A DNA stretch of 64,000 nt, taken from the IMG/VR virus record IMGVR_UViG_3300020205_002848, positions 14,561 to 78,560 of that record. The stretch is one strand, 5' to 3'. Position 1 is the first letter of the stretch. Each line of letters starts with the position of its first letter. The notes below the pieces were generated by a model. That model worked only from the letters and a program-made list of their open reading frames with translations. It did not search any database and was not told the origin of the DNA. This DNA is from a virus. Shown piece by piece: positions 1,134 through 56,263 of this stretch. The position numbers were made by a program, and so were the translations under genes.

Positions 1134-1844
1134 TTAAGAAATCCAGATAAAATAATCGTTTTTCTCACCTTCAAATGACCAATCTTCTCCTAAACAAGTA
1201 GAAATTAATTTTTTAACAACATTATCTGTTAAAATATCCATTAATTTTATTGAAAATTTTTCCTCGTCAATTAAATCAGACAAACTGATACTTATATCAT
1301 CAGTTAAGTCTATTTTTTTCTTTTTAGACTCTTCATAAAAATGATCTAAAATATTATTAACAATTATATCATAATCTTCTTTAGAATAAACAATAACTTC
1401 CCAGTCATCATTTTGCCAATCATTTAATTTAAATTTATGCTTATCAGAATCAAGAACATCTAAACCACCTAGATTAATATCAAAATAATCAGCTAAAATT
1501 TTCTCCATTTTAATATCTGATTTTTCAATACCTTTATAAAGACATTCTTTTAAAGAAGAAATTTTAAAATCATTTGATTCAAAATATTTAAAAGATTCAA
1601 ATGTAATAACACCATCACTTTCCATATTATATCTATCTTCAATAAGGTCTTTTAAAATTGTTTCAGACCCTTTAATATCTTTTAACTTATTTCTTTCTAG
1701 AAATTTATTAAATTTATCACCACCCGGTTTCAAATAATTTCTTAAACTTGAAGGTCTTATTTTATGAGTATCAATATAATGATCAAGTAAACTATTTATC
1801 AAGTCAGAATATTTATTTACATCTTCTCTATTATTAATTGACAT
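1134..1844 (-). CDS. hypothetical protein
   Basis: 236-aa ORF overlapping upstream gene; internal ITFESFKYFES copy of the capsid-targeting-like motif. Confidence 0.7.
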   Translation of the reverse strand: MSINNREDVNKYSDLINSLLDHYIDTHKIRPSSLRNYLKPGGDKFNKFLERNKLKDIKGSETILKDLIEDRYNMESDGVITFESFKYFESNDFKISSLKECLYKGIEKSDIKMEKILADYFDINLGGLDVLDSDKHKFKLNDWQNDDWEVIVYSKEDYDIIVNNILDHFYEESKKKKIDLTDDISISLSDLIDEEKFSIKLMDILTDNVVKKLISTCLGEDWSFEGEKNDYFIWIS

Positions 1845-2142
1845 CTTTATTTCTTATATTATATAGATCAAGAAATTTATCTTTATCTTTTTGTCTCTCT
1901 TCTTCTAAATCTTCTTTTTCATCATCATCTAATCTTTCACCAATAGTGTCATAATATTCATCCTCAGATAATTCTTCCAATTCTCGAGAATTACAAAATT
2001 TACAATCATCTTCAGTTGAATTAACTGATTTATAAAGGGCATTACACCCGTCACAATGGTAATAACTCGTCAAAACATCCTGACTAGTTGTTGGTAAAGT
2101 TTGACTAAAATCAAACATCTCATATGCTTTTATATACTTCAT
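1834..2142 (-). CDS. small zinc-ribbon protein with N-terminal capsid-targeting-like peptide
   Basis: MKYIKAYEMF; CDGC...CKFC; TAATATATA at 2149-2157. Confidence 0.7.
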   Translation of the reverse strand: MKYIKAYEMFDFSQTLPTTSQDVLTSYYHCDGCNALYKSVNSTEDDCKFCNSRELEELSEDEYYDTIGERLDDDEKEDLEEERQKDKDKFLDLYNIRNKDVN

Positions 2143-2206
2143 ACAAATTATATATTAAATATAATTTTTCATTTTTTTATAATTTATAAATCAAAGATTA
2201 ATAGAT

Positions 2207-2215
2207 TAATATATA
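2207..2215 (+). promoter_or_regulatory. putative phage late promoter TAATATATA (representative of at least 17 perfect copies)
   Basis: Perfect copies 4-30 nt before start codons: + strand at 2207, 4333, 17123, 19727, 35361, 40683, 45985, 57179, 60747; - strand at 1076, 2149, 8618, 10720, 15959, 19276, 26592, 59821. Analogous to T4 TATAAATA. Confidence 0.8.
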
Positions 2216-2219
2216 GACT

Positions 2220-3122
2220 ATGAATTTATCACAACTAAAAGATTTTTATAATAAAAAGCCGGTAGAATTTGTTATCAAAGAGCATTATAACTTAATTGAA
2301 GACAATGAATTCATTCCTAGATTCTCATTAAAGAATGTTAAAGACATATCAAACATTCCTATTAACAAACCTATTAAATATTCTGATGATATTATGGCAA
2401 AAGCTATAAAATACGGAATGATGTTTTTAATAAATTATAAAGGAGAAGAAGATAAACACTTCGCTGGTCACGAAAGAGTAATCTATCCAATGGTTTTGGG
2501 TAGATCATCAAAAGGTAAAACTCTTTTAAGAGGATGGCACTTGAATGGTTGGTCGGTTTCTCAAAAAAGACATGTTAATAAAATTTGGAGATTATTTAGA
2601 ACCGATAGAATTCTTTCTATGACATTCACTGGATCATTTTATAGATTACCCCCTTCAGGTTATAAAATGGACGATAAAGGAATGAGAGGTGGTATAGTAG
2701 CTAAAGCAGATTTTAGTGAAATTAGAAGAAATCAACAAAATTTAGTTAACCAAAATAAGATACAAAATAGAGAAGAAGTCACAATGGGTGATGAAGAAAG
2801 GAAATTTATATCTATTAGAGCTAAAGATACTAAGACTCAACTGGATTTAACAAAAGCGATGGAAAATTCATATATTAATAATCTAAAAGATACAGAAGCT
2901 TTAAGACTTTCTTTTTTAAAGAGTATTTATGGTAATAAATATATCGCAATATTAGGAGCTTTGGGTCAACCGGGTAATACTGTTAAAGTATTTACTGAAC
3001 AAGGGTCTCAAATAGGAGTTTTTAAGGTATTAGACTCTATAACAGGTCAAGTATTAAAAAGTATTAAGAATGTTAAAGGCAACACTTTATATGATTTATA
3101 TCTTTTTGATAAAAAGGTATAA
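2220..3122 (+). CDS. WYL-like domain protein
   Basis: ERVIYPMVLG...LRGWHL...WRLFRTDRILSM resembles the WYL domain signature. Confidence 0.6.
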   Translation: MNLSQLKDFYNKKPVEFVIKEHYNLIEDNEFIPRFSLKNVKDISNIPINKPIKYSDDIMAKAIKYGMMFLINYKGEEDKHFAGHERVIYPMVLGRSSKGKTLLRGWHLNGWSVSQKRHVNKIWRLFRTDRILSMTFTGSFYRLPPSGYKMDDKGMRGGIVAKADFSEIRRNQQNLVNQNKIQNREEVTMGDEERKFISIRAKDTKTQLDLTKAMENSYINNLKDTEALRLSFLKSIYGNKYIAILGALGQPGNTVKVFTEQGSQIGVFKVLDSITGQVLKSIKNVKGNTLYDLYLFDKKV

Positions 3123-3180: not shown

Positions 3181-4335
3181 ATGCTTTATAAATTTAAATC
3201 TTTCTTAAAAGAAGAATTGAGAATCAGTGAAATGGATGGGTCTTCTTTATCTACATTAAAAGTAAATTTAATGGATAGATTAGTTGAATATAGAACCTAT
3301 ATTCTATCATCTATTATATACAACTTTGATACAAATAAAATAGAATATAAAGATTTAGACTCTATTGACACTAAAGTTATTATCAGAGAATTATCAAATG
3401 AATTCACTGAAGAAGTGGTTCAAGAAATAAATATAGAATCATTTCTTAGAAAACTAAATCAAATATTAGAACTTAGAAAAAGAAATACAAAAAGAAAAAT
3501 CAGAGAATCTTTTGACGATTATTTTAAATCATTAAATGATAGAATAGAACAAATTCATCAATCTGATACAAAAGATAACCTTGATGAATTTGAAGGAGAA
3601 GAATCTCTTTTGGATAGAAAAAAATATGAATCTGAGAAGTTTAAACTACAAGTTGAATTAGCAAAACTTCAAGAATGGGTTATTAAAAATAATAAAAAAG
3701 TAGCTATTGTCTTTGAAGGTAGAGATGCTGCTGGAAAAGGTTCTACAATCAAAAGATTTATTGAATATTTAAACCCAAAAGTCTACAGAGTTGTTGCTTT
3801 AGGTGTCCCAACAGAAGAAGAGAAAGAAAACTGGTTCGAAAGATATGAACAACACCTACCTAATGATGGAGAAATAGTATTTTTTGACCGTTCTTGGTAC
3901 AATCGAGCGGTTGTCGAGCCGGCAATGGGTTATTGTACTGAAGAACAGTATGGCGAATTTATGAACAAAGTAGTTAAATGGGAAGAAAAACTAATAAAAG
4001 ATAAGGATATAACTTTAATTAAATTTTGGTTCTCTATAACACAAGATAAACAAATTAAAAGATTCGAATTAAGACAAGCATCCCCATTAAAATATTGGAA
4101 ATTCTCACCAAATGACGCAAAAGTACTTGATAAATGGGAAATAATTGGAAACTTTAAAAGACAAATGTTTACACAAACATCATCAAGAAAATCACCATGG
4201 GTTATTATTAATTCAAATGATAAAAAAATAGGTAGACTTAACGCAATAAGATATGTTCTTTCTAAAATAAACTATGAAGATAAGGACCCTGAAATGTGTA
4301 AGTATTACCCAGAGGTTGTTAATATTTTAATTTAA
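3181..4335 (+). CDS. ppk2: polyphosphate kinase 2 with about 140-aa N-terminal extension
   Basis: FEGRDAAGKGSTI Walker A, FFDRSWYNRA, KFWFSI, LKYWKFSPND. Confidence 0.95.
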   Translation: MLYKFKSFLKEELRISEMDGSSLSTLKVNLMDRLVEYRTYILSSIIYNFDTNKIEYKDLDSIDTKVIIRELSNEFTEEVVQEINIESFLRKLNQILELRKRNTKRKIRESFDDYFKSLNDRIEQIHQSDTKDNLDEFEGEESLLDRKKYESEKFKLQVELAKLQEWVIKNNKKVAIVFEGRDAAGKGSTIKRFIEYLNPKVYRVVALGVPTEEEKENWFERYEQHLPNDGEIVFFDRSWYNRAVVEPAMGYCTEEQYGEFMNKVVKWEEKLIKDKDITLIKFWFSITQDKQIKRFELRQASPLKYWKFSPNDAKVLDKWEIIGNFKRQMFTQTSSRKSPWVIINSNDKKIGRLNAIRYVLSKINYEDKDPEMCKYYPEVVNILI

Positions 4336-11925: not shown

Positions 11926-12393
11926 ATGATAACTAAAATATCCATATTAGGTAAAGAAAATTCTAAAAAAACTAGGTTAACTAAAGATTTAGCATGTTAT
12001 TATAATACTAATTTTGTATTGGATTATAAATATCTTATTTTTGGGAGTTTTGAAAAAACTCCAGAATGTGAGGATTACCTTAAAATTTCCAATGATAGAC
12101 TATCATTGGAAAATTGGCTTTTAAAGAGTTCCAATAAGATACTATTTTCAGATACTGATGACTTTAGTTTATATTTAGATGTTTCAAAAAAATTCCCAAA
12201 AAATAAAAAAGTAAAAGAGGAAATTCTATCAAGAGTTTTAAATAAAAAGTTTGATTATTATTTTCTAATAAATCCTACCGATGAAATAATTTCAGAAGCT
12301 AATAAATTAAAACTAAATATCGAAATATTTAAGGGAGAGTATGATGAAATTAAAAATAAATGTATATCATTTATAAATAAGTCTATAAATTAA
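11926..12393 (+). CDS. NadR-type P-loop kinase-like protein with degenerate Walker A
   Basis: KISILGKENSKKTRLTKDLA...ILFSDTD. Confidence 0.6.
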   Translation: MITKISILGKENSKKTRLTKDLACYYNTNFVLDYKYLIFGSFEKTPECEDYLKISNDRLSLENWLLKSSNKILFSDTDDFSLYLDVSKKFPKNKKVKEEILSRVLNKKFDYYFLINPTDEIISEANKLKLNIEIFKGEYDEIKNKCISFINKSIN

Positions 12394-13486
12394 ATTTTTC
12401 TAAAAATTCTGATTCAATTAGATAACCTTTGGTAGAATTAATATATCTCTTAGTTATACATAAATTCTCTATAGATCCAATCGTTATTGGATCTATAGAG
12501 AATTTAAATCCATAATACACAGATACTTTATGATCAATAGTTGGGAAAAATCTATGAGTGTGACTTTTTGATAAGTATCCTTTTATAAATTCATCATCGT
12601 AATAATCAACGCCATTCCATTTTTCATATAAAAACTTCTTGTTAGAGTTGGTAATTCTTCTAACCAACTTTTTATACTTATACCAATCACTCGTTTCGGA
12701 ATCAGATATAATGGTTCCGTTAGATTCTTTAGTATATTTTATTTTTCGTTGTATATCACCAACTTTACTAACATTATCAACTCCATATCTTTCTAGACAA
12801 GTTTCTCTACACTTTTTAATAGTTTCTGATAATTTTGATTTAAAAATGGATTTCCAATAGTCAGTCTTTGATAAATATTCATTACCATATCTTTCTAAAA
12901 ATGTTATTTTTATCTTTTCAATAGTTTGTATAATTTTAGAATCAATTGTCTTCTTAAATTGGTCAGTCTTTGAGTATGAATCAACTCCATATTTTTCCAA
13001 CATAGTTTTTTTAGATTTGTCTTTAAACTCATCAGATGACATCCACTTTCTATTCATCTCTCTACTTTCATCAGTTTTGAAATAAGAGTCAACTCCATAT
13101 TTTTCCAACATAGTTTTTTTACCCTTTTCAGAACCCTTTTGAATACCTTTCCATTTAATACTCTCTGTCAATTTAAACTCATCAGTCATTGAATATGACT
13201 TAACGCCCCATTTTTCTAAACATGTTTTCTCCTTTACATGATTTTTACACATAAAGCAAGAATAATATCCTTTGTCACTTCTGTTTTTATTAACTAAATA
13301 TTTCGAATAGGGTATATGGTTTTCGGAACTACATATTTCACAAATAGCTGTTATTTTATTCTTTGTACCCACTGGTAAGTCATTAACATTGACGAAAATC
13401 TCATTAGATATTGTATATCCTAAATTTAAATAGTAAGATCTATTTCTCAAATTAACTTTAACCAAAACTTTATCCTCCTTAATCAT
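12383..13486 (-). CDS. free-standing HNH-type homing endonuclease with EKYGV repeats
   Basis: CEIC/CFMC Zn motif, about 5 (C/M)LE(K/R)YGVD-like repeats, C-terminal PTIDHKVS...NLCITKRYINSTKG. Confidence 0.7.
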   Translation of the reverse strand: MIKEDKVLVKVNLRNRSYYLNLGYTISNEIFVNVNDLPVGTKNKITAICEICSSENHIPYSKYLVNKNRSDKGYYSCFMCKNHVKEKTCLEKWGVKSYSMTDEFKLTESIKWKGIQKGSEKGKKTMLEKYGVDSYFKTDESREMNRKWMSSDEFKDKSKKTMLEKYGVDSYSKTDQFKKTIDSKIIQTIEKIKITFLERYGNEYLSKTDYWKSIFKSKLSETIKKCRETCLERYGVDNVSKVGDIQRKIKYTKESNGTIISDSETSDWYKYKKLVRRITNSNKKFLYEKWNGVDYYDDEFIKGYLSKSHTHRFFPTIDHKVSVYYGFKFSIDPITIGSIENLCITKRYINSTKGYLIESEFLEKFNL

Positions 13487-13563
13487 ATAAACTATATACT
13501 TTTTATTATATATAAAATTATATAAGTCCCATTAGAGACAAATTTTAAAAAAAAACATAAAAA

Positions 13564-15029
13564 ATGACAAGAGAAGAAAAAATATTCAAGATCGAGTCTT
13601 TAAAAAAACAAGCGAGCGAGCTAAAGAAGGAAGCGGATTACTACAACGCACTTCAGCTCGCTCTTGTTTAGCCCCCGGTATTTATTATCGGGGGCAAAAG
13701 AGACTAAAATTAGTTCTAAATGGAAGTTACGGCGCATTCGCTACATCCTACTTTATATTATATAATAACCACGTAGCTGGTACAATTACTGCACAAGGCA
13801 GGGACCTTACACAAACAATGGACAGGGTCAATGAAGACTATTGGTATAACCAGTGGCACAACGACCATGAACTTCATTTTAAATTAGGTATTAAAGATGT
13901 AAGTGAAATATCTAAAAGTGAACCAGTTTCTATATATGCTGATACTGATTCATTATTCGTTTCTTTCAAACCAGCAATTGACCATTGTAATTGGAAAGAT
14001 TTAATATTCAATAAAGAATATTTAGATTCGATTGATGAGAAGTTTATCATATTAACAAATGATGAGACAAAAACAAATAATCCTAATTGTTTAGGAATCG
14101 CATCTAACTTAGATGATTTATCTGAATTAATAAAAAATGATTATAAAGTTTTATTATTCGATGGTAACTTTATTAAAGACAGAGGGTTGAATAAGATGAT
14201 AAAAAATGGAGTATTCACATCTAGTATTGGGTGGAATTGGCCAAGTGAGCAAGACTTTATACAGGGTGTTGATCATTTTAGATTTGGTGGATACTTTAAA
14301 AAATGTTTAGAAGATTACGCATCATCTTTTGGTGTTGAAAATAAAGAAGATTTTGAATTAGAAAGAATATCTGAATCGATTATCAATCTTGCTAAAAAGA
14401 AATATATTTGTCACATAACATATGAAGATGGCATCCCATTTGATAGACTGACTTATCTTTATCCAAAAGGTGTTGAGCTTGTTAGATCGTCTACTCCGGC
14501 ATTTGCTAGAGATAAGATTGTTGGTATTGTTAAGTATCTATTTACACACCCAGATACCTTTAATATAAAAGATTTATTAAAATTAGTTAAGGGTTTAAGG
14601 AAAGAGTTTGAGTTAGCTGATATTGATGATATCGCAATGCAGTCTTCTTGTTCTAATTATGATATTAAGGTTCTAAATGATAAATCATTACCTCTTCAAT
14701 TTGTATCAGGTGCTCACTTTGCGGTTAAATCAGCAGCTCACTATAACTATCTTTTATCAAAGAGTAAAGACCATCAACAAAAGTATGAGTTTATTAAATC
14801 AGGGACTAAGATTAAATACTTTGTATGTAAAGATAAATCGGTAACTGATATGTTTGCTTATATTAGAGGTTCTTATCCACATGAATTTGCACCACCTATT
14901 GATTATGATACACAGTTTTCCAAATCTATTTTATCACCGGTGAATTCTATTATAGAGCCATTGGGAATGCCAGAGATTACTAAAAGGTTATCAGTTGTAA
15001 TGGATATATTTAGCGGTTTTTCGAAATAG
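13564..15029 (+). CDS. family B DNA polymerase, C-terminal subunit (gp43B-like); interrupted by a 41-nt insert (join 13564-13665 and 13707-15029, about 474 aa)
   Basis: MTREE...YYNALQLAL then GTT TAG; other frame resumes CTA AAA = (L)KLVLNGSYGAF...TITAQGR; YADTDS, KKKY, KGVELVRSSTP. Confidence 0.9.
13606..13706 (+). other. candidate programmed translational bypass element (5' stem-loop, take-off CTT, TAG, gap hairpin, landing CTA)
   Basis: GAGCGAGCT(13614-22)/AGCTCGCTC(13655-63) plus AAACAA/TTGTTT stem; GCCCCCGGTA/TATCGGGGGC hairpin 13671-13695. Confidence 0.75.
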
Positions 15030-30044: not shown

Positions 30045-30387
30045 ATGGCTAAAATAATAGACAAAAGAAAAATAATCAGAGAAGAAGGGGCGACTAAAGT
30101 TTTAGTCGCCTCTTACTGAGGACGGTACATTATCCACAGGAGTATCGATAAATGCTATTTTTAATGTAATATTCGCTGATTCTTTTAAATCGGAGCAAAT
30201 TATTATACAATCAATTGGTAGAGCACTTCGTTTACACTCTGATAAAAAGAAAGCAAATATCTTTGATTTGGTTGATATTTTTAATTCCAATAATATGAAT
30301 AATATATTATTTAGACACTTTAAAGAAAGAGAAAAATTTTACACAAAAAGACAATATCCTTACAAAATAATCAAAGTTAATCTTTGA
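30045..30387 (+). CDS. uvsW: UvsW C-terminal part (motifs V-VI); interrupted by a 7-nt insert (join 30045-30116 and 30124-30387, about 111 aa); missed by ORF track
   Basis: MAKIIDKRKIIREEGATKVLVASY TGA G GAC then GTLSTGVSI...QSIGRALR...IFDLVD. Confidence 0.85.
30085..30123 (+). other. candidate 7-nt translational bypass element
   Basis: 13-bp hairpin AAGGGGCGACTAA/TTAGTCGCCTCTT ending at take-off TAC, then TGA, landing GAC. Confidence 0.7.
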
Positions 30388-55900: not shown

Positions 55901-56005
55901 AACACTTATTTTTTTAATTGTTTTAAAAATATACAAAATTTATAAAAATAAAAAAATGAAATTAAAAATAATTAATTTCATTTTTTAAAATTGTTTAAAA
56001 ATCAG

Positions 56006-56092
56006 CGGAAAGTGTAGGATTCGAACCTACGGTACCTTTCGGTACAACAGTTTTCAAGACTGTCTCGATAAACCGGACTCTGACAACTTTCC
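56006..56092 (-). tRNA. tRNA-Ser(UGA)
   Basis: GGAAAGT acceptor, ACAGT-CTTGAAA-ACTGT anticodon arm, long variable arm, GGTTCGAATCC. Confidence 0.95.
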
Positions 56093-56096
56093 TGGG

Positions 56097-56170
56097 TGGA
56101 GGATAACGGAGTCGAACCGTTGACCCCCTGCGTGCAAGGCAGGTGCTCTAGCCAGCTGAGCTAATCCCCC
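56097..56170 (-). tRNA. tRNA-Ala(UGC)
   Basis: GGGGGAT/ATCCTCC acceptor with G3:U70, CCTGC-CTTGCAC-GCAGG, GGTTCGACTCC. Confidence 0.95.
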
Positions 56171-56263
56171 AAATAATAAATATATATATAATTATTTAAC
56201 TACCTCTTTTTTTATATGATCGTTGATATTAAAAGTTTATAGGGTTTTATTGTATTTTTTATT

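Follow-up and report, generated by a model that had tools for sequence, protein, structure and literature searches.

The window analysed here is a 64,000-nucleotide (nt) stretch of DNA from the virus record IMGVR_UViG_3300020205_002848 (positions 14,561 to 78,560), part of a 78.5-kilobase (kb) IMG/VR viral contig of approximately 28% GC and about 32% completeness, in which the gene for the C-terminal piece of a split phage DNA polymerase of family B (polB-C) is interrupted, inside the conserved motif B, by 41 nt that include a stop codon. These 41 nt are probably a programmed translational bypass (hop) element, housed in a nuclease-plus-gap cassette in the gene for this piece. An earlier reading made from the letters of the stretch alone (the sequence-only reading) had proposed a bypass like that of phage T4 gene 60; every comparative prediction of that proposal that could be tested came out in its favour, and the proposal is thus supported. 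To our knowledge, a single family of long-range programmed bypass is known in bacteria and phages, namely T4 gene 60 and its topoisomerase homologs, and no report of a polB case was found in the literature searched. If true, the present reading would place another natural system of this kind beside that of T4 gene 60.

As had been described, the frame opened by ATG 13564 ends in ...YYNALQLAL, the last codon being CTT, and then runs into GTT and TAG, while motif B resumes in another frame after a CTA triplet that closes a 41-nt gap. Deleting 13666-13706 restores QLALKLVLNGSYG, identical to the uninterrupted relatives, and the expectation that relatives would lack exactly these 41 nt holds for L001, L002, L004, L005 and L006, which read M..YYNALQLALKLVLNGSYG without a break. 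The second segment (441 residues) matches Pfam DNA_pol_B (5e-16) and is 86% identical to that of L004, a relative with an uninterrupted polB-C. The GC-rich hairpin recognised in the gap is a perfect 10-base-pair (bp) stem (13671-95) formed by the arms GCCCCCGGTA and TATCGGGGGC, and the gap folds at -20.2 kcal/mol. This hairpin is single-copy in the 78.5-kb contig, where the chance expectation is 0 matches, and no further copies were found in the window, in its own contig or in IMG/VR, so that it is not a dispersed repeat; for the gap, Rfam returned nothing beyond sub-threshold chance matches. Folding of 13564-13760 places a 5' stem-loop and the gap hairpin adjoining, side by side (z = -5.75), which bears out the upstream stem that had been drawn as ending at the stop. 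The GC-rich codons of that stem, said to be unusual for this genome, are indeed so, the leader having a GC content of 0.39 against 0.28 for the genome.

The interruption belongs to a family. Pooling 32 loci from IMG/VR, 80 from metagenomes and two phage records gave 77 distinct alleles, 43 of them gap-free and 34 with a gap. The gaps measure 36-48 nt and follow any of five codon positions (after QLA, QLAL, KLV, NGS or NGSY), and in all 34 gap alleles skipping the whole gap restores motif B and both flanking segments are under clear protein-level conservation. Gap length modulo 3 is 0, 1 and 2 in 10, 16 and 8 alleles, respectively; with all three frame classes represented and stops present in the in-frame gaps, the family cannot be served by any one frameshift or readthrough event. 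An in-frame stop occupies the first or second gap codon in 28/34 alleles and interchanges among TAA, TAG and TGA, standing directly adjacent to the take-off codon at the Val and Ser sites only. The hairpin is conserved across the gap alleles, and in most of them it has a C5/G5 core and begins 5-6 nt past the take-off codon; from the G-run to the last triplet stretches an A-rich tail, mostly of 5-9 nt. No C5..G5 hairpin was found in approximately 2 Mb of gap-free relative genomes; the sole other one in five relative genomes (L129 1495-1525; G002:147775-147794) lies between convergent genes, and its appearance is that of a bidirectional terminator rather than of a coding gap.

A further trait of the family is the relation between the two ends of the gap. 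In 26 of the 34 alleles, the triplet that closes the gap and the codon that precedes the gap are synonymous, and in 30 the two have 2 nt or more in common. At the Leu site the synonymous pairs are CTT>CTA (eleven alleles) and CTG>CTA, and at the other sites they are GCT>GCA (two), GCT>GCT, GTT>GTA, GTT>GTT, TCT>TCA, TAT>TAC (seven) and TAT>TAT. The CTT and CTA pair noted in the window is the rule in 12/12 Leu-site alleles, in all of which CTA ends the gap though the adjoining tail varies in nearly every allele, and in which the codon before the gap is CTT, once CTG. For the same Leu, TTA or TTG is used by 16/43 gap-free alleles and never by gap alleles. A near-identical hairpin core follows Ala in L007 and L008 and Leu in L032, one codon apart, and the end triplet is GCA in the former and CTA in the latter. 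A take-off-like dinucleotide is found in the tail of 1/33 alleles, against about 10 expected from shuffled tails. The single codon box and the clean tails argue that the end-triplet match is also maintained. The two traits that the sequence-only reading had flagged as unusual, namely codons that are synonymous but not identical and a sense codon standing ahead of the stop, are general features of the family and not defects of the window's copy.

As a separate observation, the window encodes adjacent tRNA-Ser(tga) and tRNA-Ala(tgc) genes (56005-56171, minus strand), whose anticodons match the A-ending landing codons TCA and GCA of the relatives' Ser- and Ala-site gaps; this match may be a coincidence in an AT-rich phage.

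The 5' stem-loop also tracks the gap. In the window it folds at -25.6 kcal/mol (z = -4.6). For a 77-nt segment whose end lies just beyond the take-off codon, folding energies in the Ala-, Leu- and Val-site alleles range from -22 to -32 kcal/mol (z -4 to -6.6), whereas the corresponding region of the gap-free alleles averages -8.4 kcal/mol (z -0.4) and forms a strong 5' stem-loop in none. The 3' arm of the stem-loop invariably finishes at the take-off codon: in the two Val-site alleles the entire stem has moved downstream, its register thus following the take-off site. The stem is made of synonymous GC-rich codons, and three pairs of its helix change on both sides. Across ten gap alleles, 93% of the cells in this 13-bp helix are paired, a figure that falls to 28-44% once the 3' partners are shifted along; for the identical columns in eight gap-free alleles it is 42%. 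Between the window and L021, identity is 93-98% over 13579-13670 and approximately 70% in the nuclease gene and downstream polB; because 13579-13670 is far more conserved than the flanking coding DNA, this alignment pattern fits what selection on the RNA itself would produce. In the Tyr-site alleles the 5' stem is weak or absent.

Beside the interrupted gene stands a putative homing endonuclease gene (Table 1). Its open reading frame (ORF) matches Pfam DUF7487 (3e-17) and the PHROG 'homing endonuclease' families phrog_3339 (1e-7) and phrog_12131 (7e-7); a PDB sequence search gave nothing useful, Pfam recognised no HNH domain in its C-terminus, and no MobA-annotated gene among the phage records matched it. 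In a count of the alleles whose upstream flank is 1.1 kb or longer, scored as positive if a nuclease lies directly upstream of polB-C, the nuclease is present in 22 and absent from five of those with a gap, and present in 0 and absent from 29 of those without (Fisher p = 4e-11). That it never stands beside an uninterrupted motif B is as expected if the gap destroys the nuclease's own target. The nuclease is of the DUF7487-type family except in L034 (2020-2784, minus strand), L188 and L189, where a GIY-YIG/NUMOD3 protein occupies the same place. Ala-, Leu- and Val-site gaps are accompanied by nucleases that share 46-74% identity with that of the window, and Ser- and Tyr-site gaps by nucleases that share 30-40%. 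The five gap alleles with no nuclease upstream are Tyr-site ones (L009, L013, L177, L187 and L195) that may remain from nuclease loss; in L009 and L013 an IF3-like gene lies upstream in the nuclease's place. A module related to the window nuclease (a repeat module) also occurs in an ORF between the split nrdA halves of Acinetobacter phage KARL-1 (L211, 41849-42748).

Table 1. The interrupted polB-C gene and the nuclease gene next to it, in window coordinates
Feature	Position	Strand	Remarks
Putative homing endonuclease gene	12383..13486	-	367 amino acids, free-standing; divergently oriented to polB-C, whose start codon lies 77 nt away
First coding segment of polB-C	13564..13665	+	34 codons, from M to the Leu of QLAL; conserved peptide
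5' stem-loop	13606..13669	+	3' arm holds the take-off codon and the next codon; from folding
Predicted take-off codon CTT (Leu)	13663..13665	+	last codon homologous to uninterrupted relatives
Coding gap	13666..13706	+	41 nt: GTT, TAG stop, hairpin, A-rich tail, landing triplet
In-frame stop TAG	13669..13671	+	second gap codon, after GTT 13666-68
GC-rich hairpin	13671..13695	+	10-bp stem and 5-nt loop; begins 5 nt past the take-off codon
A-rich tail	13696..13703	+	AAAAGAGA; no CT dinucleotide
Predicted landing triplet CTA (Leu)	13704..13706	+	followed by KLVLNGSYGAF
Second coding segment of polB-C	13707..15029	+	motif B K (KLVLNGSYG), motif C (YADTDS), thumb, stop 15027-29

The interrupted gene is one piece of a polymerase that is split throughout the clade. 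In two complete relatives and in a 95%-complete 436-kb contig, polB consists of two genes approximately 100 kb apart, and the clade-wide arrangement is an N-piece of about 515 amino acids, which covers the exonuclease and the beginning of the polymerase domain, alongside a C-piece of about 476 (L001/L036, LR745206; L002/L037, LR756502; L005/L040). The split is also present in genomes without nuclease or gap, and the exonuclease part was not found in the window's own contig, itself a fragment. The C-piece starts approximately 33 codons before motif B in every relative, and therefore the leader belongs to the gene in its normal form and did not arise through the gap; its 34-residue Lys-rich peptide is kept in all relatives, with or without a gap. 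The nearest named relatives of the contig are uncultured phages of 634-642 kb, and its polB has distant matches to phages of the Flavobacterium group. A Shine-Dalgarno (SD)-like motif precedes 4/68 long ORFs of the contig, which is below background, and the upstream regions are A/T-rich. Taken together, the lack of SD usage and the distant polB matches suggest a host without SD-led initiation, possibly one of the Bacteroidota.

Three relatives (L024, about 1374-3000; L028, about 1349-3000; L033, about 1350-3000) carry, in addition to the motif B gap, an intein in motif C of polB (YADTDS/C...VHN/S), and in those three a protein-level and a translation-level insertion coexist in one gene.

Contigs from RNA libraries bear on whether the gap is still in the message. 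One of them (X16) matches 13549-13689 with 0 mismatches and runs from the first segment through 24 nt of the gap, and in another (X17) a relative's hairpin stands directly before the resumed coding sequence; these contigs and a third (X18) are short and none bridges the entire gap, the uncovered stretches being uninformative. The joined, gap-less form was not seen among the contigs of four runs. The RNA contigs favour retention of the gap in the mRNA, without proving it.

With the gap in the message, the favoured course of events would be as follows. A ribosome that started at ATG 13564 would pause with peptidyl-tRNA(Leu) on CTT, while the gap hairpin would form at or in the A site and block normal decoding, and the nearby stop would dispose of those ribosomes that fail to take off. 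The 5' stem-loop, which has the take-off codon in its 3' arm, would re-form behind the ribosome, strip the codon from the anticodon and drive the mRNA forward. The retained peptidyl-tRNA would scan the CT-free tail and re-pair at CTA 13704-06; CTT and CTA are synonymous Leu triplets, predicted to pair with one peptidyl-tRNA. Decoding would then restart at AAA and give ...QLALKLVLNGSYG... as a single chain, which would contain the tryptic peptide EADYYNALQLALK, followed by LVLNGSYGAFATSYF.... As for the DNA, the gap would disrupt the presumed target of the endonuclease, the conserved motif B, which would leave a nuclease-carrying genome immune, and gap-free relatives would be cut and converted, as in T4 mobA/gene 60.

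Several points weigh against this interpretation or parts of it. The fusion of the two segments into one protein is something that we infer, the RNA-library contigs may stem from contaminating DNA, and the contigs cannot rule out a rare spliced form. Most alleles, including the window, have one sense codon between take-off and stop, unlike T4 gene 60, and the hairpin starts 5 nt past the take-off codon instead of containing it, again unlike T4 gene 60. Because the genome has no SD usage, the landing aid known from T4 is probably absent. The GAG to which the sequence-only reading had drawn attention just before the landing codon does not stand as a mini-SD: it lies 1 nt, not approximately 6 nt, from CTA, and although most alleles have a G5 run 5-9 nt before the landing triplet, SD-like motifs are rarer than background in this genome. 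The end triplet is non-synonymous in eight Tyr-site alleles (AAC, AAT, AGC, GAC, TAA); these triplets are mostly near-cognates of Tyr codons, and the subclass is less well explained. There is no early stop in 6/34 gap alleles. Furthermore, an insertion event that duplicated 2 nt of its target site could account for the match of the first two bases, and because the alleles are related by descent, their counts overstate the number of independent events.

Among the alternatives, a previously undescribed reaction that cuts and ligates RNA under the guidance of the hairpin could take the gap out of the mRNA, as a mini-intron of approximately 40 nt, so that the ribosome reads a continuous message. 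Precise removal restores the motif in 34/34 alleles, including the eight with a non-synonymous end triplet, the conserved hairpin could be a recognition element for the enzyme, and the ends of some Tyr-site gaps pair together (e.g., L013, L014 and L015). Nevertheless, we regard such excision as improbable: the RNA-library contigs keep the insert and the four runs hold no joint; the in-frame stop, the codon-matched end triplet, the landing-free tail and the stem-loop ending at the take-off codon are not predicted by it; and the gap, which has no Rfam match, is far too short for a group I or group II intron. We know of no mini-intron system of roughly 40 nt of this kind in bacteria or phages. 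The broader alternative, in which the gaps are either excised in this manner or dealt with by a general capacity for recoding, shared with the 4-17 nt uvsW gaps described below, appears equally improbable.

A model in which the segments are never fused, with a 35-residue peptide, a re-initiated C-terminal protein and the distant N-piece assembling non-covalently, draws on the fact that polB is already two distant genes in this clade and on the idea that ribosomes terminating at TAG could slide and restart nearby. The resumption frame, open from 13536, contains no ATG, GTG or TTG between 13536 and 13818, however, and L019 has two TGA codons in that frame directly before the landing codon. Moreover, the break falls inside the motif B helix, between Q and K, and the codon-matched ends and the 5' stem-loop would be left without a role, all of which makes this model very unlikely. 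Still harder to credit is a -1 frameshift restricted to the window, somewhere within 13564-13671, which would leave a 13-residue insertion in motif B. The downstream frame does overlap the first segment, with the hairpin after the overlap, but no slippery heptamer (X XXY YYZ) precedes the hairpin and the motif B Q and K would be pushed apart by the 13 extra residues; since most related alleles have the downstream frame closed within the gap (e.g., L007 and L019) or an in-frame gap with a stop, such a frameshift cannot be the mechanism of the family. Finally, a dead gene, an assembly artefact or a minority variant can be virtually dismissed, because the insert is intact in a contig across 13531-13828 from an independent lake-water DNA run, the sequence is present in 15 DNA runs from many lake studies, the segments flanking the gap stay conserved as protein, and the second intact polB named earlier as a possible objection is missing from a 98%-complete gap-bearing relative genome, in which the interrupted gene is the sole polB C-piece, although a second copy in the window's own genome is possible given a contig only about 32% complete.

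Other ways of reading the same letters were tried and rejected. Take-off at the GTT beside the stop, with landing at GTT 13713, would give a product that loses the motif B Lys, and for take-off at the codon beside the stop the other alleles have no consistent matching codon and the codons that would be skipped are conserved as coding. Taking TAG as a sense codon would lead straight on to a TAA in the same frame and would leave the frame difference in place, and code 11 already yields long ORFs. A group I or II intron or an intein is at odds with a gap of 41 nt, with no Rfam match, that has both a stop and a frame change.

Comparison with known systems places the polB element, read as a bypass, closest to T4 gene 60. 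The T4 gene 60 bypass reportedly covers 50 nt and is associated with a MobA homing-endonuclease element. The gene 60 gap destroys MobA's own target. In both cases the interrupted gene is an essential replication gene, and its untranslated gap, some tens of nucleotides long, falls a few dozen codons into a separately initiated piece of a split enzyme, together with a stop near the start of the gap (in polB within two codons of take-off in 28/34 alleles), a take-off hairpin, a 5' stem-loop, a landing-free 3' part and an adjacent homing endonuclease. The clean tails of the polB gaps have a counterpart in gene 60 homologs, where premature landing sites are avoided in the gap, and just as some gene 60 cassettes carry a GIY-YIG nuclease instead or have no nuclease (Manning and Atkins, bioRxiv 10.1101/2022.08.31.505936), the polB cassettes at times have one of the GIY-YIG type or none. 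The differences are also clear. The polB gaps, at 36-48 nt against 50 nt in gene 60, use five positions with codons for five amino acids; the gene 60 cassettes are never more than one codon apart and use Gly or Asp (Gly46/Asp45 of the topoisomerase II large-subunit gene). In polB the stop is usually one codon past take-off and the C5/G5-core hairpin is 5 nt downstream, whereas the T4 stem includes the take-off codon. Unlike in T4, there is no SD usage, and the gene is split clade-wide, independently of the nuclease. Because the gene is different (polB motif B, not a topoisomerase), the nuclease is different (DUF7487-type, not MobA) and there is no sequence relation, the polB element is an analog of T4 mobA/gene 60 and not a homologous member of that cassette.

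The mitochondrial 'byp' elements of Magnusiomyces capitatus, which are said to be GC-rich hairpin inserts of 27-55 nt skipped in translation, offer a second comparison. The polB gaps resemble them as short GC-rich hairpin inserts at varied positions in an AT-rich genome, with matched or near-matched take-off and landing triplets and tolerated deviations. However, byps are dispersed mobile repeats found in many mitochondrial genes and belong to mitochondrial translation, while the polB hairpin is single-copy, confined to one motif, tied to a homing endonuclease and subject to a bacterial translation system. There is a likeness as well to the free-standing nucleases that split phage genes such as T4-like nrdA, where a presence/absence-polymorphic nuclease also stands beside a conserved replication-gene target; those splits need no recoding, whereas the polB nuclease comes with a gap that interrupts the coding sequence and must be made harmless when the gene is expressed. 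If the bypass is true, selfish nucleases can recruit the removal of an insertion at the level of translation, a third route beside introns (RNA) and inteins (protein). The 34 natural variants, with five take-off amino acids, varied stops and a non-SD host, form a ready mutational series for the signals essential to bypass. On the practical side, gene callers will call the polymerase of these giant phages truncated or broken.

The window contains a second recoding candidate in the C-part of uvsW. From ATG 30045 the frame reads ...VLVASY, with TAC at 30114-16, followed by TGA, G and GAC, and helicase motif V resumes at GGT 30124 after 7 nt; a 10-bp hairpin (30090-30111) lies just before the gap. 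Most of 80 relatives have one continuous uvsW, and a subset is split alike, with stop-containing gaps of 4-17 nt after the Tyr codon that end in GAC, AAC, TAG, TAC or TAA; one split relative is gap-free. Because these gaps resemble the Tyr-site polB gaps, they suggest that these phages make repeated use of short hops.

Elsewhere in the window, a polyphosphate kinase 2 gene (3181-4335, plus strand; Pfam PPK2, 1e-78) has an N-terminal extension of approximately 140 residues.

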